The notes: a model not told the origin generated them from the letters alone. Positions 10,588 to 29,263 are shown, numbered from the stretch's first letter. The stretch is DNA of 64,000 nucleotides from Bacteroidota bacterium (GCA_021789975.1 JAJYIT010000007.1:59444-123443); one strand, 5' to 3'. Numbers and translations: made by a program.

Positions 10588-10694
10588 ATAATCTCCTCAC
10601 TTCTCCTTGGTCAACGTATGGTTGCATAAATCATGTTCGGTGTAACTGACGCATCTCTCAAAATTCCGGAGGATTTCCCTTGCCATAATGCTCT

Positions 10695-11612: not shown

Positions 11613-11621
11613 TTCTCTCTC

Positions 11622-12476
11622 TCAACGAATCAGGGTGAAGAATCCGAACATAAGTACAATCTCCGACGCGTAATTGGCGAATGACTGCACAAAATTCTGT
11701 TGCTCAGGGACGAACACTGTATCTCCCGGATAAATGTCGGGGATGGATCGCACGTTGCCGTTACGCAGATATTTTGTCAGGTCGACGTCCAACACATCAC
11801 GATATACTCCACCACGGTAAATCCTTATGTGCCGTAAATCGGCTGTTGGCGTGGTTCCGCCCGCTTCTGCAATGACCTCTATCAGCGATAGATCGTTGAG
11901 TGCCGGGTAGTTTCCCTGCCTGGTAACTGCTCCCATGACGCTAACTCGCTTGTCCATGCCGATGTGAGATATGGTGAGCCTTACATCTCCCTTGACATAT
12001 TCGGACAAGCGCTGCTTCAACTCTTCGCTCAACTGGTGTTCGGTCATCCCCGCTGCTATTACTTCGCCGACTAGAGGAACGGTGATTGTCCCGTAATCTT
12101 TCACGGTGGTTGTCGTGTTGAATTCCGGATAGCCCCATACTGTGATCTGAATTTGATCGCCTGGCTTTATTAAACTCTCTCCTGGGAGCGAATCTGTTGC
12201 CGCGTAGTTCGCAGTATTCACCGCGGGATTAGGTTCCGACGCTGCGTTTTGCTGCTGCGGGCTATACTGGGTTGGCTTCGTCAGTGTCTCTAATGAGCAA
12301 CCTGCCAATGCGACTGCTATCAGCGCGACAGGAAGCAACGACATAACAAACCGCCTGAACGATCGGTTGAAACCTACTTTGGTTTCCCCGGGCTCAATGG
12401 AACGATGCCCCGTGTCAGTAAGCTCTTCTTTTCGCCCTGACTTAACCTGGGCCTGCTGCAACTTCAAATACTTCAA
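11622..12476 (-). CDS. wza: Polysaccharide export lipoprotein (Wza/OPX; Poly_export + SLBB)
   Basis: Lipobox LAGC; IKPGDQIQITVWG, GTITVPLVGEVIAAG, VSVMGAVTRQG, AEAGG, PGDTVFVP; AGGAAGG upstream of the TTG start. Confidence 0.9.
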   Translation of the reverse strand: MKYLKLQQAQVKSGRKEELTDTGHRSIEPGETKVGFNRSFRRFVMSLLPVALIAVALAGCSLETLTKPTQYSPQQQNAASEPNPAVNTANYAATDSLPGESLIKPGDQIQITVWGYPEFNTTTTVKDYGTITVPLVGEVIAAGMTEHQLSEELKQRLSEYVKGDVRLTISHIGMDKRVSVMGAVTRQGNYPALNDLSLIEVIAEAGGTTPTADLRHIRIYRGGVYRDVLDVDLTKYLRNGNVRSIPDIYPGDTVFVPEQQNFVQSFANYASEIVLMFGFFTLIR

Positions 12477-12835: not shown

Positions 12836-12851
12836 TGGCATAGTCTTTGCG
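12836..12851 (+). promoter_or_regulatory. Putative sigma54 (-24/-12) promoter for the wzc-wzy-wzx operon
   Basis: TGGCATAGTCTTTGCG has GG-N10-GC with TGGCA and TTGC elements, about 25 nt upstream of the ATG at 12877. Confidence 0.6.
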
Positions 12852-12876
12852 CTTTATCTGGAAAAAGGCGAGCAGT

Positions 12877-14232
12877 ATGAAAAATGCGCAGTTTACTATC
12901 GAAGAGTTCCTAGCGGTCCTGAGAAGGCGAAGGGCTTCATTCATTATACCCGCGTTGATTATTATAACCGTCAGCACCATTGGGGCTTTTCTCATAACCC
13001 GACAGTACGTCTCTTCGACAACGATACTTGTCCAGAATGACGCCGTGCTCAATCCGTTCCTGAGTTATACGATGGCGATGAGTATGGAAGGGTCGGATGA
13101 CAAGCTCCGCAACTTCAATGAAATTGTTTACAGCCGTCCAACGATCGAGGCTCTAATCGATAGCCTTGGCATGCGAGCAAGGTTGAAGAACCCGATCGTG
13201 AAAGATATGTTGATCAGCCAGATATCGAAGAACATCAAGACAGACAGAAAGAGTTCGGATTCATTCACTATCTCATACTATGACTCAGTTCCCGCAATGG
13301 CACAGAGGGCTGTTAGGATTCTGTCTGAGCTCTTCATCCAAACAAGATCGAACATAGACAACCGAAAGAATAAGTTTGCTGTAACTTTCTACCAAAAGAA
13401 GCTGGATCAACTGCAGAGCAAATTTGAGAAAAGTCAGAGTGTCCTGGTAACCGCACTGAAGCAGCACGTGAACGAGTTGCCGGAAGATGAAAAGACCCTA
13501 TATACTAATATTAGTGACTACGATAAGCAGGTTAGGGTCATACAGCAGAGGCTCGACAACTACCAGCAGGCGCTTACGATCCTGGACGCTGCCTCCAAGA
13601 CAAAAGCAGGCACCCATATCGACCTAACACAATTGTATCTTATTCCACTGCTGGATGTTCCATATCAATCCGAGCTGCAAAAGGCAGTGTCTAACTATGA
13701 TCAGCTTTCTCAGCAGTACACCCAGCTTTATCCCGATGTTCAGAGTGCGCGCGCAAAGGTTATCCAGTTAATCGGCCTGGTAGCGAACGCAATCAAGGCA
13801 GAACTTGTTAGAAAGCAGGCGGAAATGTGGTCGCTCGAAAAGCTGCGAAACGACGCCATTACCTCGGTTAAGAATGCCGCGGTTGCCAAGAATCAGGACC
13901 AGGATCTTCAGACAAATTTTGGGATTTACAAAGGCTTGTACAATGAAATGAAAGTAAAATTGGAGCAAGCTCAAGCAAGTCAGGATATTGGTGAGAGCGG
14001 TGCCGAGGGGTACGTAGTAATTGACCCCGCTCAACTGCCAACCACGCCAGCCAAGCCAAACCGGGCGCTAATAATCGGCGGAGGCATGGGATTGGGACTC
14101 TTCCTCGGAATACTTGCCGCCGGACTCTCAGAGTTGCTCGATACGCGAATACGCATACCTGAAGATGTTGAAGTTTTTGAAAAGCCGATTATCGCATACT
14201 TACCTGCGCCTAGATCCTCCGACGATAAGTGA
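12877..14232 (+). CDS. Polysaccharide co-polymerase / chain-length determinant (GumC/Wzc transmembrane part)
   Basis: N-terminal TM + YVSSTTILV, long coiled coil, YPDV, VIDPAQLPTTPAKPNR + Gly-rich TM, ELLDTRIRIPEDVE; start set at ATG 12877. Confidence 0.9.
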   Translation: MKNAQFTIEEFLAVLRRRRASFIIPALIIITVSTIGAFLITRQYVSSTTILVQNDAVLNPFLSYTMAMSMEGSDDKLRNFNEIVYSRPTIEALIDSLGMRARLKNPIVKDMLISQISKNIKTDRKSSDSFTISYYDSVPAMAQRAVRILSELFIQTRSNIDNRKNKFAVTFYQKKLDQLQSKFEKSQSVLVTALKQHVNELPEDEKTLYTNISDYDKQVRVIQQRLDNYQQALTILDAASKTKAGTHIDLTQLYLIPLLDVPYQSELQKAVSNYDQLSQQYTQLYPDVQSARAKVIQLIGLVANAIKAELVRKQAEMWSLEKLRNDAITSVKNAAVAKNQDQDLQTNFGIYKGLYNEMKVKLEQAQASQDIGESGAEGYVVIDPAQLPTTPAKPNRALIIGGGMGLGLFLGILAAGLSELLDTRIRIPEDVEVFEKPIIAYLPAPRSSDDK

Positions 14233-14268
14233 AGAATCTTGAAATGAAGAAGGAAAGAGGGTATCGAA

Positions 14269-15042
14269 TTGATAGACAATTCAGGCATCTTTAACCTGAT
14301 GATGAATTCAGAGGCAAAATTTCCGGATGATCAAGGTCGCCCAAAAGACAACGATTCTTTTGCAGGACAGATTAAGGGAAGCGGCAGACAGCCGATCGAG
14401 CTCGTCCGACCAGTTAAAATCAATACGAACCCTGGAGACAGAGTCGATTCCAAGGTTATCCGGTATAATCTTTATAATTCTTTCAACTATTCCCTCTTCC
14501 TGCCTCAGGACTACAGAACTATTAAGTTGAGCCTCGGTATCACGAGTCCAAATAAAGGAGAAGGGAAAACGACGGCGGTATGCAATCTCGCCACGGCAAT
14601 ATCATTAGGCACAGGCAGAAAGACGGTGGTTGTCGATCTCAACCTGAGTAACCCGCGCATACACACCGTATTTGGAATTCCGCAGGGACCCGGACTCGGT
14701 GAAGCTCTCGTCGGCCAGGATATTTGTGTCGCGCCCACTCAAATTGAAAACTTGTTTGCTATGTCTGCGGGCAATTTGAAAGCCATTCCTCCGTCGAGAT
14801 TCCTTACTTTCAGAGAGCTGCTAGCTTCGCTCTTCAAAGAATTTGAGTTTGTTCTCATCGATATGCCTTCCGTGCAATCGAAGGATTTCCCCACATTAAT
14901 CTCAAATCAACTTACAGGCTTGATCGTTGTTGTAAAAGCAAAAAAGACAAAGAGACGGGATGTAAGTAAGTTGTTCAGGCGAGTTCGCCAGGAGACCGTT
15001 CTTGCGTTCGTCATGAATGAGGTGAACGAGAATGACTTATAA
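14269..15042 (+). CDS. CpsD/CapB-family (BY-kinase-like) P-loop ATPase, separate Wzc C-terminal part
   Basis: ITSPNKGEGKTT (Walker A), VVVDLNLSNP (A'), VLIDMPS (B), FVMN; no C-terminal Tyr cluster. Confidence 0.85.
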   Translation: MIDNSGIFNLMMNSEAKFPDDQGRPKDNDSFAGQIKGSGRQPIELVRPVKINTNPGDRVDSKVIRYNLYNSFNYSLFLPQDYRTIKLSLGITSPNKGEGKTTAVCNLATAISLGTGRKTVVVDLNLSNPRIHTVFGIPQGPGLGEALVGQDICVAPTQIENLFAMSAGNLKAIPPSRFLTFRELLASLFKEFEFVLIDMPSVQSKDFPTLISNQLTGLIVVVKAKKTKRRDVSKLFRRVRQETVLAFVMNEVNENDL

Positions 15043-15071
15043 TCACCTTTATTGTCTTAAGGCGTGAAGCT

Positions 15072-15251
15072 ATGCAGCCCCTTCTGAGCTTAATCAGCTT
15101 GATGATCGTGACCATAGTTCTCGGAAAGGGAAACTGGAGCAGCAAGTCTGTCAAGTACGCTATCGTAGTGGTTGTTGCCATGCTGCAAACAATCCTTGTG
15201 CTGATCGGCATGTTCACTATGAAAGCTCCCACTGCCCGGCTTCCATATTAA
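15072..15251 (+). CDS. Small 59-aa two-TM membrane protein (below the ORF-track length cutoff)
   Basis: MQPLLSLISLMIVTIVLGKGNWSSKSVKYAIVVVVAMLQTILVLIGMFTMKAPTARLPY*; fills the gap between the kinase and wzy, same orientation, stops 13 nt before the wzy start. Confidence 0.65.
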   Translation: MQPLLSLISLMIVTIVLGKGNWSSKSVKYAIVVVVAMLQTILVLIGMFTMKAPTARLPY

Positions 15252-15264
15252 AAGACGGGAAAAT

Positions 15265-16833
15265 ATGAGTTTTATAGAAATCAAGAGGGTCATCTCTCTC
15301 CTTAGGAAAATTCAATTTGAAAAGATAGTCTCATATTCTCTCATTGCGCTCGTGTCCCTCGCAGCGTCCTTGATTCTGGTGATGGAAAACGGGAACATCC
15401 GTGCGGCATTCGCGTTTGTAATCGTGCTCGCAGTGGTGCTGATTACTTTTTTCAGGGTGGACTGGGGTTTTTATATATTCTTCGGGATGGTCCTCCTCTT
15501 CGATCAGTTCGGCATACCCGGTTTCGATCCTATCACTTACAATGTCCACTATTTCTGGAACCTCAAGCAGATTCCCTACATACCGCATTTCTCAGCGGGA
15601 GTTATGAACCCGCTCGAGCTCCAGCTATTGCTCCTCTTCATTTCATGGTTCATGGCAGTCAGCTCCCGGAGACGAAACAAAGTTCAAGGAGTATATAACT
15701 GGGGCATTGCACTGATATTTCTGACGGCGGTAGCAGCTTCGCTCGCTTACGGCATGAAAAACGGAGGGGAGTTCCTCAGAGCACTTTGGGAAGTGCGCGC
15801 ATTTTTCTACCTCGGCTTCGTGTTCTTCCTCGTCCCGCAAATAATACAAACTAAAGAACAGATAAGGATCCTTTTATGGATCGCTATTTTTATGATGACC
15901 ATAAAGGCGATCCAAGGGATCCTCCGATATGTGTCGCAGGGATTTAGCTTCGGGATCTACACATGCCTCACGAACCACGAGGATCCGGTCTTTATGAATG
16001 TTCTCTTCATCTTTCTGATAGGCCTGATACTTTATAATCAAAAAAACAGACAGCGGACGGCGATGCTCTGGTTGTTGGTGCCGATGCTTCTGGGATACAT
16101 GGCGGGTCAGAGGCGCGCGGCAGTTGCAGGGTTCATTGTCTCTCTGGGAGCGTTCTTTGTCCTTCTTCCGGGAGAGAAAAGACGCATGCTTCTAAAGGCG
16201 ATGGTTCCGATACTGGGACTCTTCGTGGTTTACAGTGCTGTATTCTGGAACGACTCGGGAAGGCTGGGACTACCCGTACAGATGATCAAATCCGGTATAT
16301 TCGATACCAGCAAGAGTGAATCGGGAGAAAGATACGATTCTAACCTGTATCGAGTAGAAGAAGACTATGATCTTGCGGTCACCATACGTCACTCCGCATT
16401 AAAGGGAATCGGCTTCGGGAATAAGTATGAACAGCCTCTCATTCTCCCACCCATCCCCTTCCCTCTACGTGATTGGATACCCCATAACGAAATACTATGG
16501 GTGATGGTGAAGATGGGCGTGATCGGTTTCTTCGTCTTTGCCCTGTTCATGGATATGGTGGTATTCAAGGGCGTTACCGTCTTTCATGAGATCGACGATC
16601 CGTATTTGAAGGCTGTCTGCGCCGCAGTCATCATTGCTGTCATCAACCAGATGGTGGTTTCATATTTCGATCTCCAGCTGACTTTTTATCGGAACATGAT
16701 ATTCCTGGGCACGCTTGCCGGCTTCCTTCCAACTATCAGTGCTGTGGGTAAGCAAGGAAAGAAAGATGTAGTCACCATAAACCAGAGGCCGATCGAGGAA
16801 GCTGTCGCTGGTGATCCCCGGAGTATGCGATGA
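15265..16833 (+). CDS. O-antigen ligase/polymerase family protein (probable Wzy)
   Basis: Multi-TM; GQRRAA, SNLYR, GIGFGN, PHNEILWVMVKMGVIG (Wzy_C motif). Confidence 0.85.
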   Translation: MSFIEIKRVISLLRKIQFEKIVSYSLIALVSLAASLILVMENGNIRAAFAFVIVLAVVLITFFRVDWGFYIFFGMVLLFDQFGIPGFDPITYNVHYFWNLKQIPYIPHFSAGVMNPLELQLLLLFISWFMAVSSRRRNKVQGVYNWGIALIFLTAVAASLAYGMKNGGEFLRALWEVRAFFYLGFVFFLVPQIIQTKEQIRILLWIAIFMMTIKAIQGILRYVSQGFSFGIYTCLTNHEDPVFMNVLFIFLIGLILYNQKNRQRTAMLWLLVPMLLGYMAGQRRAAVAGFIVSLGAFFVLLPGEKRRMLLKAMVPILGLFVVYSAVFWNDSGRLGLPVQMIKSGIFDTSKSESGERYDSNLYRVEEDYDLAVTIRHSALKGIGFGNKYEQPLILPPIPFPLRDWIPHNEILWVMVKMGVIGFFVFALFMDMVVFKGVTVFHEIDDPYLKAVCAAVIIAVINQMVVSYFDLQLTFYRNMIFLGTLAGFLPTISAVGKQGKKDVVTINQRPIEEAVAGDPRSMR

Positions 16834-16897
16834 GCAGTCAGGATAATGCCTATGACCTCAAGTACGCCTGCGTAACAAGTGCTGTAAGCGATTAGCT

Positions 16898-18397
16898 ATG
16901 TCTTATTCGATTGCCAAATCGCTATTCAAGAACACTGCTACGATGATGGCTGCCCAGATCGTAACTTGGGTCTGCGGGCTCATCACTTTCATACTTATAC
17001 CGCGCTTTTTAGGCAGCGCCGCATACGGAAGAGTCTACCTGGCATTATCGATCCAGATGATACTGAGCAGCCTGATCGACTATGGTGCGAGCTTCCTCAT
17101 TACGAAGGAGATTTCCCGAGACAGATCGAATGCTTCGGGCACCATGAGCCATGCGGTAGTCCTGAGAACTTTCCTATGGGTGTTATCGGTTTTTCTTGCT
17201 TACCTGATCTGCGTAGTCGCACATTACCCACCGTCTGTTACTGTGCTCGTCATGATATTGGCTGTCGCAAATGCCTGGGTGAACATGACAAAGCTTTTGC
17301 GATATTGCTACCTCGGATTTGAGGAAATAAAGTACCCATCTGTTGGCGCAGTGGTCGAGCGAGGGTTCATGATGGTTTCGGTGACGGTTGCCCTGCTCCT
17401 CGGTGCTAAAGAAGAAGTGGTTGTCATACTTATCGCCATCAGCACACTAATGAGTTTCGCAATTTCCGTGAAGTATTCCAGGAGCATGTTCAAGCTGAAT
17501 CTTTCCGTACATCTCGAGACTTTCAGGAGAATGATCCGGTCCGGCGTCCCATACTTCCTATGGGCTATCTTCGGAATAATCTATTTTAGGATAGACGCGG
17601 TTTTGCTTTCTCTTTTTGCGCCCGACTCAGTTGTCGGTTGGTATGGAGCGGCTTACCGATTCTTCGATGTGCTCATGTTCCTGCCGTCCATATTCACTCA
17701 GGCACTTTACCCTATTGTTACACGATTGAGCAAGGATGAACCGGAATCCATGGTCACAACAACGCGGAGAAGCATAGAGCTGTTATTTCTCACCTCCCTA
17801 CCGATCGCCATAGGGATGATATTGTTTGCCAGGCCTATAGTTCAGTTGCTTCTCGGGCTGCCGGCTTTTGAACCCTCGATTTCGGTTTTACAGCTCCTTT
17901 CTTTTGGGACCGTTTTAGTATATGTAGACTTTGTTCTCGGGAATTCAGTGATGGCGTTGGATAAACAGAAGACCTGGGCTCTGGTCGGATTCGCGGCTAT
18001 GATTTTGAATGTTGGTCTTAACTTGATCTTAATCAAACATTTTCAATCTTTGATTGGAAACGGCGGAGTAGGTTCGGCGATAGCCACGGACCTCACTGAG
18101 CTTTTCGTCATGCTTTCTGCTGCCGCACTCATGCCGAGAAAACTTTTCAACGCGAGCCTGTGGAAGGTGGTAGCAAAAGGGGTCTTGTCGGGATCGGTGA
18201 TGGTGCTTCTCATCTTCGGCGGCATGGAAATAGGTATTCCATGGGCGCTTCTTGCCGTCTTCAGCATCATTGTTTATGGGGGCATACTCGTCGTGATCGG
18301 AGCTGTAGACCAAAGAGTTCTGGAGTTTCTGACAAATACGATCTCGGCGAGGGGCATCAGGAGATTCTTGGCAGAAAGGCGGGGAGCAAACGCATGA
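16898..18397 (+). CDS. wzx: Wzx flippase
   Basis: PRFLGSAAYG, RIDAVLL, VGWYGAAYR, LYPIVTR, NVGLNLILI...GSAIAT; many TM segments. Confidence 0.9.
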   Translation: MSYSIAKSLFKNTATMMAAQIVTWVCGLITFILIPRFLGSAAYGRVYLALSIQMILSSLIDYGASFLITKEISRDRSNASGTMSHAVVLRTFLWVLSVFLAYLICVVAHYPPSVTVLVMILAVANAWVNMTKLLRYCYLGFEEIKYPSVGAVVERGFMMVSVTVALLLGAKEEVVVILIAISTLMSFAISVKYSRSMFKLNLSVHLETFRRMIRSGVPYFLWAIFGIIYFRIDAVLLSLFAPDSVVGWYGAAYRFFDVLMFLPSIFTQALYPIVTRLSKDEPESMVTTTRRSIELLFLTSLPIAIGMILFARPIVQLLLGLPAFEPSISVLQLLSFGTVLVYVDFVLGNSVMALDKQKTWALVGFAAMILNVGLNLILIKHFQSLIGNGGVGSAIATDLTELFVMLSAAALMPRKLFNASLWKVVAKGVLSGSVMVLLIFGGMEIGIPWALLAVFSIIVYGGILVVIGAVDQRVLEFLTNTISARGIRRFLAERRGANA

Positions 18398-19650
18398 AGA
18401 TTCTTCACCTCGCTCCATATTCCCCAGTCCCTCCAATTTTCGGCGGAGCTCTCAGAGTTTATCATATACTCAAGGGACTGTCCCGTCACCATGATGTCAC
18501 GTTTATGACAATAGGCACCGACGAAGACAGGAAGCTCCTCAACTCGCACTTTGGAGAGACGGTCAGAAAGATTCACGTGATCCCGTCGGTTGGCACCCCA
18601 TTCATGCGGCCGTGGAAACTTGTAACGGGAGCAATACTCCACGGCAGAAGCATGATGTTGCAGAATGCATGGGACAATAACGTCAAAGACGCCCTGGAAA
18701 GATTGTTGAAGAGAGAGAAATTCGACATTCAACTGGCTGAGTTTCCAGGGATGGCGCAGTTTGACGCGCCGAGCGATACCGTTACAATTCTCGATGAGCA
18801 TAACGTCGAATTCAGTAACCTTGAACGGATGTATAAAGGCGCCCATTTCCCGCCCCGCAGACTTCTCTACTATCGAGAATTCCGCAAACTTCAGCATGAT
18901 GAACTAGAAGTCTGCAAACGTGTAGATTCGATTTTCGCCACATCAGAAAACGATGCGAGGCTGCTGGACCAGATGCTGCCCAATAAGCCAAAGTATGTAA
19001 TACCTAACGGTGTCGACACAAGCTATTTTGTGCCGTCAGATATGAGCCTCGAGCCGTACTCGATGGTTTTCACCGGGACTATGGACTATTTCCCGAACCA
19101 CGACGCGATGAAATATTTTATCGACTCGATATTTCCGATTGTGAAAAAGCACTTCCCACAAGCCAAAATATATGTCGTCGGGAAGAATCCGGATCTGAGC
19201 CTAAAGCGCCGGGCAAGTAGGGATATCATTGTCACCGGTTATGTCTCTGACGTGAGACCGTATGCTCTCAAGGCCTCCGTTTATGTGGTTCCTCTCAGGA
19301 TGGGAAGCGGAACTCGGTTGAAGATCCTGGAAGCTCTCGCGATGAAGAAAGCCGTCGTAACCACGACCATCGGTTGCGAAGGAATAGATGTCGAAGACGG
19401 AGTTAATGTAGATGTGGCAGACAGCCCTTCCTCTTTCGCTGAAAGAATAATAGATCTCTTCAATAATAGAAAACGCGCCACAGAGCTTGGTGAGCGCGGT
19501 TATCAACTGGTAAGGGAGCGATATGACTGGAAGGTAGTCGAGAACCAGATGGAGGCAGCAATAAGCGCGGTTGTCGAGCGAAGAACCAGTTCCGCGCTCT
19601 CAGTTACCAATGCACCCGCGAGGGGGGGAGAAAATTACAATGACGCTTAG
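18394..19650 (+). CDS. Glycosyltransferase family 4
   Basis: MKILHLAPY..GGALRVY, DEHNVE, VIPNGVD, FTGTMDYFPN, GSGTRLKILEALA; start ATG 18394 overlaps the wzx stop (ATGA). Confidence 0.9.
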   Translation: MKILHLAPYSPVPPIFGGALRVYHILKGLSRHHDVTFMTIGTDEDRKLLNSHFGETVRKIHVIPSVGTPFMRPWKLVTGAILHGRSMMLQNAWDNNVKDALERLLKREKFDIQLAEFPGMAQFDAPSDTVTILDEHNVEFSNLERMYKGAHFPPRRLLYYREFRKLQHDELEVCKRVDSIFATSENDARLLDQMLPNKPKYVIPNGVDTSYFVPSDMSLEPYSMVFTGTMDYFPNHDAMKYFIDSIFPIVKKHFPQAKIYVVGKNPDLSLKRRASRDIIVTGYVSDVRPYALKASVYVVPLRMGSGTRLKILEALAMKKAVVTTTIGCEGIDVEDGVNVDVADSPSSFAERIIDLFNNRKRATELGERGYQLVRERYDWKVVENQMEAAISAVVERRTSSALSVTNAPARGGENYNDA

Positions 19651-20443
19651 AGATAGTGTGACTCAGACAGACTCAAAAACCGCGGTCAAAGTCCTTATGT
19701 ACCATCGAGTCGTCGGAGACCAGGACCACACACCTGGTTATGCCTGGACTGTTTCGCAGTCACAGCTTCGAAGACAACTTGAGATGTTGGACAAGTGGGG
19801 ACACACATGTATCAGTTTCCAGGACTATTCCCTGGCAAGAATTGGCAAGCTCACCTTGCCACGAAAACCTGTTATCCTGACATTTGATGACGGATATGAC
19901 GACGTGTACCGATTTGCTCTACCGATCCTGAAGGAATTCGGAGTCAGGGGAACAATATTCTTACTTGGGGACCGTCACGTAAAATCCAATTCCTGGGAAG
20001 ACGAGCCACTCAGGGGCGCGCAGCTCCTTAACGAGGGACAAATCCGAGAGATGTACGAGGCGGGCTTCGAAATAGGATCACATTCATTGACACACGCGTG
20101 TCTGACAAAACTGTCGCGAGATGGAGCATGGGAAGAAATCTCCACCTCCAAAATGAGATTGGAGGAACTCCTCGACGGACCGATCACCGTATTCGCGTAT
20201 CCCTTCGGCGCAGTCAGCCCCGAGCTTGAGAGAATGGTGAGAAGTGCCGGCTATGACTACGGGTGCGGGTCTTATACTGGACCTCCGAGATTCGAGGAAA
20301 ATCTTTTCAACATAAGGCGAATACCGATTACAAGTTCGACAAAGGCGGTTGATTTTGCAGTAAAGATGCTTACTCCATACGAATACTATGCATGGCTGAG
20401 ATGGAAGACGCACAAGAGCCTGATGCCTTCCGTCTCAAGATAG
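19640..20443 (+). CDS. Polysaccharide deacetylase (CE4, IcaB/NodB-like)
   Basis: VLMYHRV, LTFDDGY, IGSHSLTH, FAYPFG; start ATG 19640. Confidence 0.92.
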   Translation: MTLRDSVTQTDSKTAVKVLMYHRVVGDQDHTPGYAWTVSQSQLRRQLEMLDKWGHTCISFQDYSLARIGKLTLPRKPVILTFDDGYDDVYRFALPILKEFGVRGTIFLLGDRHVKSNSWEDEPLRGAQLLNEGQIREMYEAGFEIGSHSLTHACLTKLSRDGAWEEISTSKMRLEELLDGPITVFAYPFGAVSPELERMVRSAGYDYGCGSYTGPPRFEENLFNIRRIPITSSTKAVDFAVKMLTPYEYYAWLRWKTHKSLMPSVSR

Positions 20444-20479: not shown

Positions 20480-21889
20480 ATGAATACGCAAATATACGAG
20501 GCGACCGAAGTTCTCGCTGTTGAGACTCAAAACGAATCCCCATTTATAAGCACGGAGATTACAACCGAGGAAAGCGCCTTCCTCTCGTTGGCTGCTGACT
20601 GGGACAAGCTTGCAGCCAGGTCATCGGCAACATTCTTTCAAACCTTCGACTGGCAATTCCTCTGGTGGAAACATTTCGGAAGGCGAACGCATCACCATCT
20701 CCTGATCGTACAGGTAAGAGAAGGCGGGCGCCTCATAGGGCTCGCCCCTTTTTTCCTTCAGACACATACTTTGTTGGGATTCAGGATATTCAGACAACTT
20801 AAGCTCCTTGGATCGGGCCTAATGTCGGAGTACTCACCTATTCTATCGCTCGAAAAAGAAGGCCCGGCAGACTATCTGGATATAATTGCAGAAACTGGAT
20901 ATGAAGATTCAGTTGCAACGAAGATCGCGGAATTCCTGACTGAGAACAATTACCTGTGGGACGAAGTAGACCTTCAGGATCTCCCTGAAGACGGATTCAT
21001 AATCAGTCATTTGTTGCCGCGTCTTCGGCCTTCCGAATTTGAGGTCACGAAGTCGGCAAGCGATGTCTGCCCGAAAGTTAATCTCCCGGATTCCATCGAC
21101 CAGTATCTCGCATCACTGCGTACCAACATCAAAAGAAGTTTTCGCCGTGCTTACAGGACTTACGTCGAGAGTTCCGATTTCAATATTGAGCATTTAGGGC
21201 CAGATGGAAATACGGAGAGTGCCTTCCAGGCTCTGACGCAATTACACCAGAAACGGTGGAACAGCATAGGTTACCCCGGTCTTTTCGCAGATAAGCGCTT
21301 TGCCGCGATGCAGCACGATTTGATCAAGGCATTAAGCGGACGGGATAGATTGTGGATCATGGTCCTGCGCCATCAGGAGAAACCGGTCGCAGCCCGCCTC
21401 GGCTTCGCATTCAACGGAAGGTTCTACGATTATCTGAGCGGCATCGAACAAGACAACACCCGCCCCGGGATGCACCAGTACTCCGGGGCAGGGATGGCAT
21501 TGATCTTTACATCTATGGACCGAGCATTGAAAAGCGGTGCTCACGTGTTTGATCTTCTCCGGGGAGACGAAGCTTACAAATTTGATTTGGCAACTGATGT
21601 ACCAAATAATTACCGCGCCACGATCGTATCTAAGATGGCTCGCAGGAGAAAGTGGAAGCTTTTCTATCGCATTCATTCTGCAGGATACGCCTATTCAATG
21701 AGGGTTGTCTGCGAATCCGCGATCTTTAGAGTGATCGCAGGTGAAAACGGAACCGGCAATGCCGTTCCGAAATATCTATCGCATTTGTTCAGGCGAATGA
21801 CAAGATCCCGATCCTACGCATCCGCTTCAGTCAAGAGCCCCAAACGGACTGTGACACGGGACTCGAACGAGAAAAATAGCGATGCTTAA
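20480..21889 (+). CDS. CelD/BcsL-family GNAT (Acetyltransf_6) protein
   Basis: FFQTFDWQFLWWKHF, LIGLAPF, ADYLDII, LHQKRW, FDLLRGDEAYK. Confidence 0.88.
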   Translation: MNTQIYEATEVLAVETQNESPFISTEITTEESAFLSLAADWDKLAARSSATFFQTFDWQFLWWKHFGRRTHHHLLIVQVREGGRLIGLAPFFLQTHTLLGFRIFRQLKLLGSGLMSEYSPILSLEKEGPADYLDIIAETGYEDSVATKIAEFLTENNYLWDEVDLQDLPEDGFIISHLLPRLRPSEFEVTKSASDVCPKVNLPDSIDQYLASLRTNIKRSFRRAYRTYVESSDFNIEHLGPDGNTESAFQALTQLHQKRWNSIGYPGLFADKRFAAMQHDLIKALSGRDRLWIMVLRHQEKPVAARLGFAFNGRFYDYLSGIEQDNTRPGMHQYSGAGMALIFTSMDRALKSGAHVFDLLRGDEAYKFDLATDVPNNYRATIVSKMARRRKWKLFYRIHSAGYAYSMRVVCESAIFRVIAGENGTGNAVPKYLSHLFRRMTRSRSYASASVKSPKRTVTRDSNEKNSDA

Positions 21890-22772
21890 CAATCTCAGGA
21901 AGAGAGTGGTACATACGATCGCATCGAGACATATCGCGGGACGCGAAATAGGAGACGCCCTTCGTGTTTGCCGATGGGCACAGACGAACGCATACCGTGT
22001 GATACTTTCTCCGTGGCGGTCTCCTGATGATTCGGCAAAGAATATGATCGCGAGATACAAAGAAGCCATGCGCGTCATCTCAGATGAAAGGCTCGACGGC
22101 TACGTGTCACTTAAACTGAATGCAATCGATAGCGACATGGGAATGTTCCGCGAACTGGTAAGTATGGCACGGTCTGCAAATGTCAGGCTCCACCTCGACT
22201 CTCTCGGCCCCGATTCTGCGAATGCCAGCTTCGAATTCCTGGAAGACGCGGTGTCTGACTATCGAAATATCGGAACGACTCTCCCTGCCCGATGGAGACG
22301 CAGCCTTGAAGATGCAGACAGAGTTTATGAGCTCGGAATCCCGGTCAGGATAGTCAAGGGACAATGGCCGGACCTTGACGATCCAAGACTAGATTGCCGT
22401 AAGAACTATTTAGACATTGCACATAGATTTGCCGGCAGGGGAATCCATGTGGGCATAGCGACGCACGATTACTCACTCGCCTCCAGGACTTCGTCTTTGT
22501 TCAAAGAGTCTGGGACTTCATTTGAGCTGGAGCAATTTTTCAGTCTGCCGCTTAACACGAGCTCTCTCGCGAATAGGATTGGTTGCGGGTACCGGCTCTA
22601 TGTCGCTTACGGATACCCCGAGGTACCATACAACGTCCGATTTGGAATTTCGCGTCCGGGGATAATCGGCTGGGTAGTAAAAGATTTTGCAGTAAGAAAC
22701 AGAAAACCGTGGGAGAAATCTCCGTCATCCATTCATGAGGTAGCCGATACAACTGACCGAACCGTCTCTTAA
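21882..22772 (+). CDS. Proline-dehydrogenase-fold flavoprotein (divergent)
   Basis: RHIAG, YVSLKL, RLHLD, VRIVKG, IATHD, LYVAYG match monofunctional PRODH motifs; overlaps the upstream GNAT stop. Confidence 0.75.
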   Translation: MLNNLRKRVVHTIASRHIAGREIGDALRVCRWAQTNAYRVILSPWRSPDDSAKNMIARYKEAMRVISDERLDGYVSLKLNAIDSDMGMFRELVSMARSANVRLHLDSLGPDSANASFEFLEDAVSDYRNIGTTLPARWRRSLEDADRVYELGIPVRIVKGQWPDLDDPRLDCRKNYLDIAHRFAGRGIHVGIATHDYSLASRTSSLFKESGTSFELEQFFSLPLNTSSLANRIGCGYRLYVAYGYPEVPYNVRFGISRPGIIGWVVKDFAVRNRKPWEKSPSSIHEVADTTDRTVS

Positions 22773-22915: not shown

Positions 22916-24001
22916 ATGGATTTCCTGATCGACAGATGGACTGAGCTGGAAAAGAGATTCGGTTCTCCGGTTATGAGCCCAGAATGGTTTCGCGCGGGGG
23001 CCGCGACGCTATGCCCTCCATATGACTTAAAGCTCGCAGTGAGAGAGAAAGATGGAGCGCTGGACGGGGTAGCCCCCATCGGGAGACTGAAGCACTTCAT
23101 GAGCAGACTTGAGGTCCTCGGAACTACTCTCCTGACCGAAGAGGGCGGGTTCCTCTATTCGAATACCGACGCGCTCATGGAGATGGTTGAGGCAATTATT
23201 CAGTTGGACAAACCCGTGTTCCTGCGGCGGGTGAGGATGTACTCTGAAGAGGCAAAAATCTGGGAAAAGGAAATTTGCGCGAGGGGTTTGCGTTGCCTGG
23301 TCCGGGAAGAACGGCTTCCGTGGGTGGCAGTCCGCAGCGATTGGAAGAGTTTCGAGAAACAACAAATATCGTCGAGCCGGAGATCTATCTTCAGAAGACT
23401 GCAACGGTTGGCAGAACAGAAAGGTGAATTCAAGTTCGAAGCTGTTGTTCCCACCTTTGAGAATCTGGATCAATACCTGGACGAAGCGTTCGAGGTCGAA
23501 GTCTCTAACTGGAAGGCCCGACGGCGAACTGCAATGAAGTATAACGAAAGGCTGGGCGGCTTCTTCCGCGAATATGCCAGGCTTGCTACGGAATCGGGCG
23601 AGCTCAGGTTGTTTTTTCTACGAGTCAACGAGGAGCCGATTGCGGTCGAACTCACGACTTTACATGGCAACAGGATCTGGATACTTAAGATTGGACACAA
23701 CGAGGCATGGTGGAGGTGCTCTCCCGGAATTCTCCTAATGCATAACGTAATCAGGTTTTGCTTCGAGAATGGCCTTGAAGGCTGCGAGTTCGGCGGAACT
23801 GATGAACCATGGCTTCACATTTGGGCCAACGAGTCCCATAGCGCTTGGACCTACAGAATATATCCGGGTTCGGTTAAAGGCATGTTTCAACTCGGCGTTG
23901 ATCTCCTTCAGTTAACAGGTGGAAAGATACACACAGTGGCAGCCACACTAAAAGCTAGAAAGAATTCGCACAATGAAACCGGTCAGGCACAAAACAATTA
24001 G
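22916..24001 (+). CDS. CelD/BcsL-family GNAT (Acetyltransf_6) protein; probable true start at 22871/22886 is interrupted by an in-frame TAA at 22895-22897
   Basis: SPEWF, GVAPI, EVEVSNWK, LRLFFLRVN, KIGHNEAW.RCSPGILL, EFGGTDEPW; the upstream in-frame MNGDIMVK*IDSIEEM aligns with the N-termini of the two paralogs. Confidence 0.8.
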   Translation: MDFLIDRWTELEKRFGSPVMSPEWFRAGAATLCPPYDLKLAVREKDGALDGVAPIGRLKHFMSRLEVLGTTLLTEEGGFLYSNTDALMEMVEAIIQLDKPVFLRRVRMYSEEAKIWEKEICARGLRCLVREERLPWVAVRSDWKSFEKQQISSSRRSIFRRLQRLAEQKGEFKFEAVVPTFENLDQYLDEAFEVEVSNWKARRRTAMKYNERLGGFFREYARLATESGELRLFFLRVNEEPIAVELTTLHGNRIWILKIGHNEAWWRCSPGILLMHNVIRFCFENGLEGCEFGGTDEPWLHIWANESHSAWTYRIYPGSVKGMFQLGVDLLQLTGGKIHTVAATLKARKNSHNETGQAQNN

Positions 24002-24232: not shown

Positions 24233-25453
24233 ATGAAAATTATCATCACACTGGTGGATATGCTATTTCTTGTTCCACTTGTCTTTTTCTCATTGTATCT
24301 GTCGATGCTGACGCTCCTTGCCTTGTTCAGAAAGGTCAGGCAATTCGACCGAAAGCCTGCCAATTACAGGAGATTCGCAGTATTAGTCCCTGCTCACGAT
24401 GAAGAGGCCGTGATTGAACAGACGGTTGCCAGTCTGAAGGAAATAGATTATCCGGGGGACAAATTTGATATACTCGTCATCGCCGACAACTGCACCGACA
24501 GGACTGCAGGAATATCACGGGCGATGGGGGCGAAGGTGTTCGAGAGATTTGATCAGGTCAAAAAAGGGAAAGGGTTTGCATTAAGGTGGTGCCTCGACCA
24601 GATACTAGCCTCCGTGCCACATTATGATGGATTTGTTGTCGTTGACGCAGACACGGTCGTTTCCAAGAACTTTCTGAGCGTGATGAACCACTACCTTTAT
24701 GAAGGAGCAGAATGCATACAGAGCAGCGATATGGTGGTTCCACAACCTGGTTCCTGGAGCCCGGAGATGACGCGGGTGGCGTTCATACTTCATAATTATG
24801 TCAGACCGCTCGGAAAGCTTACGCTCGGCTGCAGCTCCGGGTTGAACGGCAACGGAATGTGCTTTTCACGGAAGCTGATCGAGACTATGCCATGGAACGC
24901 TTACTCAAGAGTAGAAGATCTTGAGCACTCCCTTCAACTTGCAATCGACAACATTAGGGTTCAATTTGCTCCCGAGGCAGTTGTGCGAGCGATCATGCCG
25001 AGCGATTCGAAAAACGCAGAGACACAACGGAGAAGATGGGAGATGGGACGCTTTCCACTCATCTTGAAGTATACAAAACCTCTTATCTTGGAGGCGTTTC
25101 GCAAAAGATCCATCATGATCCTCGACATGCTCGTCGAGCTCGTCACACCGGCCTTCCTCAACATATTTCTGCTTACCTTGATAATGACAGGGGTTAACAT
25201 GGGAGCGCTCCTCATCGGAGCATCGTGGCTTTTTCCGATTGCGGCTATCTGGACCGTGGCATTGCTCCTTGAAATATTCCATGTACTTGGGGGGCTTAAA
25301 GCGGCGCGGGCGGACAGAGGAACTTACCTTGTTCTTATGAAGCTTCCGAAATATGCCGCCTGGAAGCTCGGTTTATATTTCAAGACATGGCTCAGAGGCG
25401 ATGAAAAACAGTGGGTGAGAACGGCAAGGGACGGCACGAATTCTAAGCATTAG
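24233..25453 (+). CDS. Glycosyltransferase family 2 (cellulose synthase/PNAG-like, membrane-anchored)
   Basis: VPAHDEE, ADNCTD, GKGFAL, VDAD, GNGM, VEDLE, QRRRW, WVRT. Confidence 0.92.
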   Translation: MKIIITLVDMLFLVPLVFFSLYLSMLTLLALFRKVRQFDRKPANYRRFAVLVPAHDEEAVIEQTVASLKEIDYPGDKFDILVIADNCTDRTAGISRAMGAKVFERFDQVKKGKGFALRWCLDQILASVPHYDGFVVVDADTVVSKNFLSVMNHYLYEGAECIQSSDMVVPQPGSWSPEMTRVAFILHNYVRPLGKLTLGCSSGLNGNGMCFSRKLIETMPWNAYSRVEDLEHSLQLAIDNIRVQFAPEAVVRAIMPSDSKNAETQRRRWEMGRFPLILKYTKPLILEAFRKRSIMILDMLVELVTPAFLNIFLLTLIMTGVNMGALLIGASWLFPIAAIWTVALLLEIFHVLGGLKAARADRGTYLVLMKLPKYAAWKLGLYFKTWLRGDEKQWVRTARDGTNSKH

Positions 25454-26585
25454 TCCGATTAGCTCTCCTTCGCTCGTTTTCCACCGTGTCGATCACAATA
25501 TTCTTGATGTTATCTACAAACTGATCCCAGGTGAATTTCTCCTCTATCCTCTTCCTTCCTTCCCTTCCCATCTCTTCTGCGACCGCAGGATTTTCCCATA
25601 GATACTTAATAGCTTCTCTCAGGGCGACCGGATCTCCCTGAGGTACGAAAATGCCGGTCTTACCATCGATGATAACATCGACCTGACCTTTTGTACGCGA
25701 GCAGATCACGGCCTTACCCATCGCCATCGCCTCAAGAATAGCCGTAAGACCGTTATCTGAGTCTGTCGGCAGTAGCGGAGTTACGACGAATCGGGAACGC
25801 GCGTACAGGTTGCGAAGCTCATTCATCGGGACTAGTCCGACAGTGAGATTTGGCGGCAGTTCAGGCTCGCGATAGATGGCTTTGACCGTATCCTGAAGAA
25901 ACCCGCGCGTCATTCCGGCTGCGATGTGGCATTTTATATCAAGGCCGCGCATCGCTTTTATCAGGGTCGGATAGTCGCGCATTTCGACACCCACAGAACA
26001 AATCCGATCGGTTTCACGCGGCATCGGGCGGAAGAATTTGTGATCTACGTAGTAGGTTATGAACCTGATTTTTTCGGGTGGAATGCCCAGATGGTTTATG
26101 GCAAAGTCGCGATGAGTTGAAGTCCATAAGATCATCGTCGAAATATGCGAGTGGACTCGCTTTAGTATCGCTGCCTTCCTGGGTTTGGAAATCCAGAACA
26201 TCAAGGCAACATGCGGGAACTTCGTGTGGGTAAGTTTCAGGAGTGAAGCAAACAGAAGCCCGTTTTTATCCGACCATGATATGACGACATCGAATTTCTT
26301 CCTGACAAGGTAAGTCTCGATAGCCATGGAGATTGAGGCCGGAAGTATCTTGTAGATTCCTCTGCGCCACCATGGAGACTTGGACAGAGACGTTTCGTCC
26401 AGCGTCACCGTCTTCAGTGTGCGCTCGTACAGCGAACTCCGCGGAAGCTCATCGCTTTGTTCTTTGTCCGGGTCGTTCCGTCTTATCCCGCTGGAAACTA
26501 AGGTCAAGGACCGGATGCCGTGCATGACATTCTTTTCGTTGGCATTCACCGATGCCTTGTCTCCGGAATCTACCTGCATAGTCAT
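25443..26585 (-). CDS. Glycosyltransferase family 4
   Basis: VDHKFF, SVGVEMRDYPTL, GLTAILEAMAMGKAVI, TGIFVPQGD. Confidence 0.9.
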   Translation of the reverse strand: MTMQVDSGDKASVNANEKNVMHGIRSLTLVSSGIRRNDPDKEQSDELPRSSLYERTLKTVTLDETSLSKSPWWRRGIYKILPASISMAIETYLVRKKFDVVISWSDKNGLLFASLLKLTHTKFPHVALMFWISKPRKAAILKRVHSHISTMILWTSTHRDFAINHLGIPPEKIRFITYYVDHKFFRPMPRETDRICSVGVEMRDYPTLIKAMRGLDIKCHIAAGMTRGFLQDTVKAIYREPELPPNLTVGLVPMNELRNLYARSRFVVTPLLPTDSDNGLTAILEAMAMGKAVICSRTKGQVDVIIDGKTGIFVPQGDPVALREAIKYLWENPAVAEEMGREGRKRIEEKFTWDQFVDNIKNIVIDTVENERRRANRTNA

Positions 26586-26955
26586 AGCTCACATTTCTGC
26601 TTTCATTGCATCTTCAACCGGCGGCGGGACTACAACTTCATAATCAACGAGCATTTTCGGACTGGAGTTCCGCTAAACCCAAGTCAATCCGGAGAATCGC
26701 GTAGAATGGTTTGATTTCAGTCCTATGACTCATTTGAAATTTAATGGAGATTGAGTAGACTATCAAGTCGTTATGAATCGCGTTCATGGAACACAAGGAG
26801 AGGTATTTTCAACATGGAGACATGGAGTTCACCGAGAAGAGCAAACTTATAGAATCTTTTTGTGCTTAGGGCTTTCACGGTTGATCCTGTTGATTTCGGC
26901 CGTGCCGAATTAGGAATTAATGAATACCCGGTGATGTTACTGCTAATGTAAGCAG

Positions 26956-27555
26956 ATGGCTAATTCAGAATTCATCCGCCGCGTGAGGTGGCGATTATCG
27001 AATCATTCAGTGTGGGAACACTTGAGGGGCCTGTGGTTTGCGCGGAAGATGACTAGGCACGGCATCATCGTCGTGACAGGTGGCCGACCTTCTCCGAAGA
27101 TTATCAACAAAGGCGGAAAAATCATCGTACAGAACTGTCAGTTTTACGAAGGCGTGCGATTTGACGTCGGCAAGAACGCAACCGTATTGGTCGGCAACGG
27201 TACCTATCTTAACCGGAATACAAACATTGTCGCACAAGACAGAGTGGAAATCGGTCGCAACTGCAAAATAGCCTGGGACGTTGTAATAATGGATACGGAC
27301 CTGCACGCAGTTGACGGAACCGTTTTGGAGAACAAGCCCGTGGTAATAGAGGATAATGTCTGGATAGGATGCAGGTGCATCATCCTCAAAGGTGTCAGGG
27401 TTGGCACCGGTGCGATCATCGCGGCAGGTTCGGTGGTTACAAAAAACGTTCCGCCGAATTCAATTGCAGCCGGAGTGCCTGCACGAGTCATCCTGGAACG
27501 AGCGCGTCATGCAGAATTAGAAAAAAAAATTCCAATTGACGATCCAGAGAAATAG
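26956..27555 (+). CDS. Left-handed beta-helix (hexapeptide) acyltransferase, WcaF/maltose O-acetyltransferase-like
   Basis: DTDLH, PVVIEDNVWIG, ILKGVRVGTGAIIAAGSVVTK, AGVPAR. Confidence 0.92.
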   Translation: MANSEFIRRVRWRLSNHSVWEHLRGLWFARKMTRHGIIVVTGGRPSPKIINKGGKIIVQNCQFYEGVRFDVGKNATVLVGNGTYLNRNTNIVAQDRVEIGRNCKIAWDVVIMDTDLHAVDGTVLENKPVVIEDNVWIGCRCIILKGVRVGTGAIIAAGSVVTKNVPPNSIAAGVPARVILERARHAELEKKIPIDDPEK

Positions 27556-27666
27556 TAGAAGTTCCTTGCAGGACGCGGTCCGGCAGTTGCAAATCAGGGT
27601 TCAACTTCTACAGGAACTTATGATGTCGCTTCAACGTCATGAAAGTTAAAGATCCTCTATTAGTTT

Positions 27667-28420
27667 CTACTTCCCGGACAAGACGTCCACGACTTGCATC
27701 TCTTCGATCAACTTCACATGCTGGTCGCCTTCAACAAATGAGTGGCGACCGTTTTCATCGAGTGATTCTCGGACTTTACTCTTTATGAAACCCTGTTCAC
27801 AAGTCAGAGGTTTTAAGTTGCCGATGACGTCTTTCCCGACAAAGAACGCGTTTTCGCCGCCGCCATCGGAGCCTATAAAGTAATAACATTTGTTCTCTGC
27901 GAGAACGCAAAGCGCCTTGAGCGATGCACCCAAACAAAGCCGCGAGTAATACGCCTTAGTTCGCACAAAGTCGGGAGTATACGGAATGCTCATTGTGTCT
28001 CCCGCCCCAAGAAGGTTATTATATTCACAAACCACAATCTTCTGTAAACTTGTATCGATTTTCTCCTACACCCAGTAGTCGTTCCCGTCGATGTCTACGC
28101 GAAGTAAGCCGATGTCGCCGCTGAATCCGGCACCATTAATAAGCTCGTTCCTGTTATCGCCGTTGATAAACGCGCAGATCGCAATAATGTCATGACTCCA
28201 GCAAAGAAATTATTTCCTGATCCGGTCTACATTGACCGGGTCACCGTCGGTCACCGACCCTCGCCAGTTGTTGTTCATGAGAAGGAATCGCGTATTGGAT
28301 TGGCAATAATCTTCAACTCCGAATTCTACGAAGACCTCTTTTCCGGCATTCTCGAGAAGAAAAATTGAATTATGCCATTTTCTCTGTTTTGTGAAAACGC
28401 CTGAACCCTCTCGACGACAA
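27667..28420 (-). pseudogene. Degraded FkbM-like/Methyltransf_21-type polysaccharide methyltransferase
   Basis: Reconstructed as FSQNRENGIIQ [frameshift near 28340-28360] VFVEFGVEDYCQSNTRFLLMNNNW...K*...DIDGNDYWV*...VVCEYN...GASLKAL...NAFFV; in-frame stops at 28210-28212 (TAA) and 28066-28068 (TAG). Confidence 0.75.
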
Positions 28421-28513
28421 ATCGTTCTTTCGGGAATCGGTCAGCATATCTCGCATGTACAGTCTGGCTAACAGGATCCGATTCTGCCCCACGGAATCAA
28501 CCAGTGGGTCGAA

Positions 28514-29263
28514 TCAAATTCGCTCAGTTGCCTCCACTTGTTTTCTCCCAAGAAAAATCGAAATCAGGATCGTAACCGGGAATCTGACGGTCGCAGTAAA
28601 GATTCTATTGATCCTCTGCGGTTGTTTAATAAGTCTGTAAAGCCACTCAATGCCTGCGGAGCGCATCCATGCCGGCGCCCGCGGGACAACTCCGGCAATA
28701 AAGTCAAACGTCCCACCCACGCTCATAGCGATCTTAGGAGTCAACCTGTTCTTGTTCTCGTAAACAAATTTTTCCTGCTTTGGTACGCCAAAAGCTACAA
28801 GGAGAATGTCTGCTTCCGAATTGTTGATCCGGTCGACAAGGCCGTTTTCATTTGGGGTACCGGAGTAAGTGCCGGCGATTCTAAGTGCAGGATAGGCTTT
28901 CTTGAGACGCTCTGCCGCCTTAGCTGCTATCCCTTCTGCAGCTCCAAGAAAAAAGATCGAGTACGAATTGTCAGAGGCAATCTTCGCCACCTCCCACGTG
29001 AGATCGACACCCGGAATTCTCCGCCCTACTTCAATGCGGAGGACTTTGGCAGCAAAACGCAGCCCGACCCCGTCCGGTATGGTGAGATCGGCTGCATTTG
29101 AAATTTTCAGAAGTTCCGAGTCGTGACGCGTCGCCATAATGAACTCCGGATTTACCGGTATCACATGATGAAGTTTCTCACTCGTCAGGAATGTCTTGAG
29201 CCTGGAAATGACCTCGTCGTAACTAAGCCCGTCCAGTCTGACCGAAAGTATCTCCGCCGCCAT
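28514..29263 (-). CDS. WecB/TagA/CpsF-family glycosyltransferase (GT26)
   Basis: NPEF, PDGVG, RIPGVDL, FFLGA, VAFGVPKQE, VGGTFDFIAG, RAPAWM, EWLYRL..QPQR. Confidence 0.93.
   Translation of the reverse strand: MAAEILSVRLDGLSYDEVISRLKTFLTSEKLHHVIPVNPEFIMATRHDSELLKISNAADLTIPDGVGLRFAAKVLRIEVGRRIPGVDLTWEVAKIASDNSYSIFFLGAAEGIAAKAAERLKKAYPALRIAGTYSGTPNENGLVDRINNSEADILLVAFGVPKQEKFVYENKNRLTPKIAMSVGGTFDFIAGVVPRAPAWMRSAGIEWLYRLIKQPQRINRIFTATVRFPVTILISIFLGRKQVEATERI

Follow-up and report, generated by a model that had tools for sequence, protein, structure and literature searches.

Proline dehydrogenase (PRODH) is treated as a catabolic family with a single function. In the excerpted text of PMC6017737, Lys99 binds the proline carboxylate, Arg288 and Arg289 are proline-binding residues, and Arg288 pairs with Glu65 to form the gate of the active site; in that of PMC5335563, the flavin phosphate is contacted by Thr226, His227, Lys187, and Asp228. 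In Fem-like transferases, according to the excerpted PMC12945691, tRNA is bound by a basic helix and catalysis involves a lysine (Lys305 in FemX), and BD-12 Orf11 adds glycine to an amino sugar. Here we describe a 296-amino-acid (aa) PRODH-like protein encoded in a stretch of 64,000 nucleotides (nt) from Bacteroidota bacterium (GCA_021789975.1, JAJYIT010000007.1:59444-123443), referred to below as the window. Its clade combines a rebuilt substrate site with a fixed partner from the Acetyltransf_6 GNATs across 14 phylum labels, and the two proteins are a defined target for assay. The pairing also gives a handle on the Acetyltransf_6 GNATs that are common in polysaccharide loci, for which no function was shown in the literature searched; for one clade of them, there is now a partner and a lost lysine by which the clade can be recognized. 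The same search found no paper on the PRODH-like clade or the GNAT pair, most subscription papers and supplements (e.g., genome-mining tables) lying outside it.

Our preferred reading, to which we assign a probability of about 0.5, is that the PRODH-like protein is a flavin-dependent amine dehydrogenase that acts with the GNAT encoded downstream on a carboxyl-blocked or tethered amino-acyl or secondary-amine group, most likely in the tailoring of a surface polysaccharide.

RESULTS

A PRODH-fold protein in a clade of its own

The 296-aa protein falls under both curated thresholds for PRODH, scoring 23.3 bits with Pfam Pro_dh (PF01619; cut-off, 27) and 49.3 with NCBIfam NF045947 (cut-off, 500), and a few other members of its clade exceed the Pfam cut-off (e.g., P0131, at 38.7). 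Thermus PRODH was matched at an E value of 1.8e-5 from the single sequence and of 2e-28 from a 117-row profile. An AlphaFold2 model of the protein had a predicted local distance difference test score of 91.6, and its top Foldseek matches were monofunctional PRODHs (E value, 3e-15; 18 to 20% identity). With VIA-align, the best match was the Deinococcus radiodurans PRODH 4h6q (Z score, 27.9; root mean square deviation, 3.2; 256 residues aligned), against a Z score of only 15.2 for the best unrelated chain. An Atlas look-up likewise gave the PRODH fold, and we conclude that the protein is predicted to have the PRODH (βα)8 barrel. No hydrophobic segment of membrane-span length was found in it. A pseudogene or chance open reading frame (ORF) was ruled out by the open frame and by 117 homologues at 28 to 61% identity.

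We pooled homologues from a word search (at least 130 matches, 120 of them listed), a profile search of cluster representatives (the best 150), and GTDB loci (the best 80 of 258). Removal of duplicates left 332 clade sequences for residue counts, together with 19 canonical PRODHs, which were the two of the window genome itself, 14 from relatives, and three from the word search. Profile scores were bimodal, none of 364 full-length matches lying between 160 and 260 bits. A preliminary description of the locus had proposed a phylogeny against PRODH; our FastTree tree of 97 clade rows (a sample) and the 19 canonical sequences was split into two groups by one branch with a support of 100. Judged by sequence, then, the PRODH-like proteins form a clade distinct from canonical PRODH, and the label "proline dehydrogenase" that its members carry in many JGI records is probably wrong.

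The PRODH-like protein has a dedicated GNAT partner

One GNAT cluster adjoined or was fused to the PRODH-like gene in 71 of the 80 GTDB loci (67 upstream, 4 downstream, 3 fused). Because the partner label in these loci rests partly on a profile built from the same loci, we added three outside checks. Fusions to an Acetyltransf_6 GNAT, with the GNAT part N-terminal, accounted for 20 of the 21 long homologues scanned from the best 150 cluster representatives. In a FastTree tree of GNATs, 16 of 17 fusions and 68 partners formed one 84-row clade (support, 99) that included none of the 70 other GNATs; one double-GNAT fusion and two truncated ones were left out of this tree. When the 959-aa protein of the window (Table 1) was used to collect 80 metagenome loci, all 45 full-length PRODH-like matches in them had a partner within 700 nt; many of these loci are near-copies, and there were 35 distinct partner sequences.

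Among 301 genomes of the window's phylum, the same 7 held the PRODH-like protein and the partner, and the two genes were adjacent in all 7. Scores were at least 301 bits for the PRODH-like proteins (next, 150) and at least 399 for the partners (next, 132), and in three of the six carriers other than the window genome, none of the sequences was identical to a row used in training. In a second phylum, the same 3 of 351 genomes held both, with the two genes at contig ends in one of them. These searches scored 5 to 8 candidates per genome, and misses are possible. Two genomes (G339 and G503) had mid-scoring GNATs and no PRODH-like member; these GNATs are a sister type with better scores against the ordinary-GNAT profile, and the two copies whose motif was read have the C-terminal lysine discussed below. 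Distances between PRODH-like proteins and partners were correlated (rho, 0.68 over 67 loci). This correlation did not single out the partner and was not used as evidence: on shared pairs, an ordinary GNAT reached 0.49 against 0.73 for the partner, and a GT2 gene reached 0.80 against 0.69. The PRODH-like protein and one GNAT clade are a fixed pair that has been fused repeatedly.

In the window, it is the GNAT downstream of the PRODH-like gene that fell inside the partner clade, and both the upstream GNAT and the more distant one fell outside. The preliminary description had tied the PRODH-like gene to its flanking GNATs and had pointed to the overlap with the upstream gene. The fusions and the co-distribution make the link to a GNAT much stronger than the window shows, but only the downstream GNAT is the conserved partner. 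We rejected the upstream GNAT, whose ORF overlaps the PRODH-like one, as a partner; it is an ordinary member of the locus.

Other arrangements were seen near the pair. One partner GNAT was followed by two tandem PRODH-like genes, the second more divergent, at L198:8463-11264 (genome G451). In seven loci (L025, L030, L031, L032, L038, L041, and L046), a DegT-type aminotransferase was fused to an ordinary Acetyltransf_6 GNAT, and a GH9 gene often came directly after the PRODH-like gene. A gene similar to that for ComA (phosphosulfolactate synthase) adjoined the pair in L014, L019, L040, L051, and L097; ATP-grasp genes did so in some loci, and L097 had both.

The substrate site is rebuilt around a kept flavin site

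Active-site residues were mapped by alignment and are given in Thermus PRODH numbering unless stated. All of the motifs quoted in the preliminary description were found at their places in the 296-aa ORF: SLKL (76 to 79), DSLG (106 to 109), RIVKGQW (156 to 162), ATHD (193 to 196), YVAYG (240 to 244), and YNVRFGISRP (250 to 259). Its statement that the LGE loop is absent also held, as SPWRS occupies the place of DLLGE in Thermus PRODH. The register of helix 8 was set, without a gap, by the equivalence of Tyr250 to Tyr285 and of Pro259 to Pro294, so that Arg253 of the window protein corresponds to Arg288, Phe254 to Arg289, and Ser257 to Glu292. Elsewhere, Lys78 corresponds to Lys99, Lys159 to Lys187, Thr194 to Thr226, His195 to His227, and Asp196 to Asp228, and Ser47 stands at the position of Glu65.

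The substrate-site changes noticed in the window sequence proved to be common to the whole clade and not private to it. Among the 332 clade sequences, Lys99 was kept in 331, Asp133 in 328, Arg184 in 332, Lys187 in 322, His227 in 331, Asp228 in 296, Tyr275 in 321, and Tyr285 in 322; Thr226 was kept in 298 and replaced by Ser in 34, so that Thr or Ser is found in all. Largely lost were Glu65 (present in 9), Glu135 (2), Gln163 (0), Arg289 (10), and Glu292 (26). Arg288 was retained in 104, including the window protein. All 19 canonical PRODHs had Arg288, Arg289, Glu292, Glu135, and Gln163, and 17 of them had Glu65. For Asp133, Arg184, Gln163, Tyr275, and Tyr285, we rely on the roles that we take them to have in PRODH; Gln163 is presumably a contact of the flavin ring.

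Two assignments in the preliminary description had to be corrected. SLKL is present, but it is not the FAD motif as which it was listed, its lysine being the substrate-carboxylate residue Lys99 (PMC6017737, in excerpt). The change from KGAY to KGQW is likewise real, but it lies in the site of the flavin phosphate, at Lys187 (PMC5335563, in excerpt). The alanine of KGAY also varies among canonical PRODHs, with Ile in 12 of the 19.

Where canonical PRODHs differ, six clade-specific residues were conserved in 293 to 330 of the 332 members: Trp45 (296), Arg137 (316), Trp138 (330), Glu217 (321), Asp268 (310), and Trp264. Their conservation points to a new specificity rather than to decay. The short N terminus of the 296-aa protein need not be disabling, since PRODH variants with a truncated arm that lacks helices A and B retain their reactivity toward N-propargylglycine (PMC6017737, in excerpt).

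The partner GNAT is also remodelled

The partner in the window matches Acetyltransf_6 (PF13480) at 98.7 bits (cut-off, 22), and 52 of 52 partner sequences match the same family. A C-terminal motif lysine, mostly read as YK, was present in 66 of 73 other GNATs, in none of 69 partners, in one of 17 fusions (an outlier), and in none of the 35 metagenome partners; partners read W-[TLI] in its place. They have invariant residues of their own, Glu195, Trp199, and Lys200 (Glu195 and Lys200 in 69 of 69). Lys258 is conserved within the clade, as is Lys200, and a basic helix carries Arg156 (67 of 69), Arg160 (67 of 69), and Arg161 (69 of 69). Weak FemAB matches under the cut-off were obtained for 12 of the 52 sequences (19.8 bits for the window partner; cut-off, 24), and ordinary GNATs gave a weak match to an aminoacyl-tRNA-dependent peptide synthase (E value, 0.08). 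The partner profile found no match among solved structures in the PDB. The YK lysine may correspond to FemX Lys305.

Canonical PRODHs are found elsewhere in the genome

The preliminary description had set proline catabolism aside and had suggested looking for a canonical enzyme elsewhere in the genome. We found two, both above the Pfam cut-off and with intact motifs. One lies 2.5 kb from a gene for an aldehyde dehydrogenase that, by its motifs, is probably a Δ1-pyrroline-5-carboxylate (P5C) dehydrogenase, and no aldehyde dehydrogenase match was found on the contig of the window. Nor do the homologues sit in put operons: a profile built from six aldehyde dehydrogenases of the genome had a single match in 166 PRODH-like or neighbour loci, and the matched protein is ProA (in L073). 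These results bear out the view that the gene does not serve proline catabolism.

Free proline might still be the substrate in another role. The PRODH-like protein would then oxidize free L-proline (or hydroxyproline or pipecolate) as a dedicated biosynthetic supply of P5C or glutamate semialdehyde to the partner GNAT, as CarD, a PRODH homologue, serves carbapenem synthesis. The kept equivalents of Lys99, Asp133, Tyr275, and Tyr285, and the first arginine in the window protein, would suit such a role, as would L073, where proB and proA, which lead to the same semialdehyde, have the deacetylase gene on one side and the partner GNAT gene on the other, in the same orientation. We nevertheless consider it unlikely. 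The arginine pair and the Arg288-Glu65 gate, described in the excerpted PMC6017737 as proline-binding and as gating, are what the clade has largely given up, with Arg289 in 10 and Glu65 in 9 of 332 members. All 7 carriers among the 301 genomes also have a canonical-scoring PRODH, and the proBA arrangement, seen in one of 166 loci and as the sole copy found in its genome, can be due to chance.

The proB and proA genes of L073 (6017-8544) are part of a polysaccharide locus and immediately precede the partner GNAT gene; proBA was rejected as a regular member of the cassette. In the window genome, a canonical PRODH lies with a dihydrodipicolinate-synthase-like gene, an aminotransferase apparently split into two ORFs, and an aldehyde dehydrogenase at G000:C73:53597-61278 (L002 and L010), an arrangement that resembles a cluster for hydroxyproline use. 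The genome also has a second clade member, at G000:C36:20474-21346 (L091:9490-10350), among unrelated genes. It has Gly at the position of Asp133 and His at that of Tyr275, and it is possibly decaying.

Polysaccharide loci are the usual but not the only setting

By gene content, the window locus is assigned to the Wzx/Wzy type of polysaccharide loci. Elsewhere, cluster profiles placed a glycosyltransferase, flippase, polymerase, or deacetylase gene in 32 of the 45 loci that were fully flanked (at least 9 kb on each side). A Pfam scan of 101 of the 161 listed neighbour ORFs (within 6.5 kb, in 16 loci; the ORFs dropped were mostly antisense shadows) added a flippase in L081, Wzi in L036, and an epimerase in L060. 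A polysaccharide context is usual (32 to 34 of 45 loci), but co-occurrence with wzx and wzy, which the preliminary description had proposed to check, is not constant, about a quarter of the fully flanked loci being without a polysaccharide gene. The 80 GTDB loci come from taxa with the 14 phylum labels, 3 loci being unlabelled. The pair is a portable two-gene unit whose link to polysaccharides is strong but not exclusive.

In three actinomycete loci (L055, L060, and L069), the pair is followed by genes for anti-sigma, PP2C, or sigma-factor proteins, and no polysaccharide synthesis gene was found in these loci except for one epimerase. Such stand-alone pairs beside signalling genes, to which Ser/Thr kinases in L037 can be added, would fit a reading in which neither protein is a working enzyme. 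The barrel would be a sensor, either of the flavin redox or of the ligand type, to which the lysine-less GNAT binds in the regulation of polysaccharide synthesis or of a stress response. That both proteins are without residues kept by their relatives agrees with this, but we regard it as improbable. Lys78, whose equivalent is kept in 331 of 332 members, is a substrate-side and not a flavin-phosphate residue, and both tyrosines are kept. The invariant Glu195 and Lys200 of the GNAT clade could replace its lost lysine, and the three actinomycete loci are relatives.

The 959-aa neighbour is a frequent companion. A gene of its type was found in 29 of the 80 loci, often directly after the pair. Of the loci collected with the 959-aa protein as seed, 19 were well flanked, and 17 of these contain the pair. 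The middle part of the protein matches choline and ethanolamine kinases (E value, about 1e-6). In L076 (5934-9956), a phosphoribosyltransferase (PRT)-kinase-HAD protein of this type is fused to the partner GNAT in a 1,341-aa protein, and the PRODH-like gene follows. Two or three tandem copies of 959-aa-type genes come after the pair in metagenome loci L123, L124, L125, L126, L129, and L135. The frequency of the gene, the fusion, and the kinase-like part would all fit a pair that serves the 959-aa protein, the flavoprotein oxidizing or reducing the C-N bond of an N-linked sugar derived from phosphoribosyl pyrophosphate, or of an amino-alcohol phosphate, that the GNAT binds or acylates. Against this, 26 of the 45 fully flanked loci have no such gene near the pair, a single one of the 7 carrier genomes yielded it, and many of the metagenome loci are near-copies; we think this reading quite doubtful.

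Organization of the window locus

The features of the locus are listed in Table 1. The start of the PRODH-like ORF overlaps the end of the upstream GNAT ORF by 8 nt, and 143 nt separate its end from the partner GNAT ORF. Promoter and terminator scans gave counts at chance level (10 versus 15.0 and 15 versus 12.1, respectively). The 305-aa ORF beside the export gene (10695-11612) matched no Pfam family. A radical SAM/SPASM gene lies at the edge of the locus (34321-35277).

Table 1. Features of the window locus, with positions counted from the first nucleotide of the window
Feature	Coordinates	Strand
PRODH-fold protein of the divergent clade, 296 aa, ATG start	21882..22772	+
Dedicated partner GNAT (Acetyltransf_6), 361 aa; motifs ExxxWK, WxLKIG, SPG, and GxxExW-[TLI]-xxW; without the usual YK lysine	22916..24001	+
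Upstream Acetyltransf_6 GNAT, 469 aa, ordinary type with YK motif, outside the partner clade	20480..21889	+
959-aa protein composed of phosphoribosyltransferase-like, choline/ethanolamine-kinase-like, and HAD phosphatase parts; often, but not always, present as a third member of the cassette	29267..32146	-
Third Acetyltransf_6 GNAT, 446 aa, ordinary YK type	32644..33984	-
Upstream polysaccharide genes: Wzz/GNVR protein, P-loop protein, Wzy-like polymerase, flippase, GT4 glycosyltransferase, polysaccharide deacetylase	12847..20443	+
Downstream polysaccharide genes: GT2 (+), GT4-type (-), hexapeptide-repeat acyltransferase (+), WecG/TagA glycosyltransferase (-)	24233..29263	mixed
Divergent genes: Glycos_transf_4 initiating transferase, 305-aa ORF, Wza-type export protein	8653..12476	-

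DISCUSSION

Because the flavin site, the lysine, and both tyrosines are kept while the arginine clamp and the gate have been dropped, we favor oxidation of an amine whose carboxyl group is esterified, amidated, or absent. In numbering of the window protein, the flavin would bind through Lys159, Thr194, His195, Asp196, and Arg156, and Lys78, Asp106, Tyr240, and Tyr250 would place the amine over the flavin N5 for C-N oxidation of the PRODH kind. Loss of the second arginine, of its glutamate, and of the Glu65 gate would leave an open, less cationic site suited to an ester or amide over a free carboxylate. The fixed pairing and the repeated fusion fit a GNAT that hands over the substrate, which it would bind or make in tethered form, and the imine or aldehyde product would end on the glycan or a glycan precursor. 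The preliminary description spoke of an oxidase; we use "dehydrogenase," since nothing in our analysis points to oxygen as the acceptor.

Several observations weigh against this amine dehydrogenase. Nine of the 80 loci have no partner nearby (one is at a contig end, and several have an ordinary GNAT near), and neither does the second paralogue of the window genome have a GNAT nearby. The window protein retains the first arginine, and 255 of the 332 members have at least two Arg or Lys residues in the helix 8 window, so a shifted or rearranged carboxylate (anion) site is possible. The Gln163 position is Pro in 314 of 332, which could alter flavin binding. In the GNAT, the lost YK lysine weakens a step of amino acid transfer. 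By the cluster profiles, 13 of the 45 fully flanked loci have no glycan gene; the Pfam scan rescued only two or three, the rest lying among housekeeping, signalling, and other biosynthetic genes.

A bolder form of the proposal makes the two proteins a co-remodelled machine. The lysine-less GNAT, with its basic tRNA-binding helix retained, would offer the clamp-less PRODH barrel an aminoacyl ester, either prolyl-tRNA or a prolyl-glycan. We consider this specific form improbable. If true, it would mean flavin oxidation of a tethered amino acid, with a reactive imine or aldehyde as the product that goes on to decorate or cross-link an exopolysaccharide; no description of such chemistry for the PRODH or GNAT fold was found in the literature searched.

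Comparison with known systems

Among described systems, the gPRT-PRP ribofuranosyltransferases are similar to the 959-aa neighbour in having PRT-like and HAD phosphatase parts within a polysaccharide locus, a likeness of domain layout; the neighbour differs in its extra kinase-like part and its association with the GNAT and PRODH-like pair. The partner GNAT is similar to the Fem-like transferases (FemX, DhpH-C, and BD-12 Orf11) in its weak FemAB matches and basic helix. It differs from them in that those matches stay under the cut-off, no solved structure was matched, and the C-terminal YK lysine is absent. PutA shares the fold of its PRODH domain with the window protein (Z scores, 23.6 to 24.8), and in both PutA and the clade a PRODH barrel can be fused to a second enzyme. 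In the clade, however, 20 of 21 long homologues have an Acetyltransf_6 GNAT as their N-terminal part, and in none of those scanned was the second enzyme an aldehyde dehydrogenase. The closest structural matches are the monofunctional PRODHs of Thermus thermophilus (2g37/2ekg) and Deinococcus radiodurans (4h6q), which have in common with the window protein the barrel (Z score, 27.9; 18 to 20% identity) and Lys187, Thr226, His227, Asp228, Lys99, Asp133, Arg184, Tyr275, and Tyr285. The window protein differs from them in the loss of the Glu65 gate, Arg289, Glu292, Glu135, and Gln163, with Arg288 variable in its clade, and in an N-terminal arm shorter by about 20 residues; and the clade is paired with a GNAT, not with a P5C dehydrogenase.

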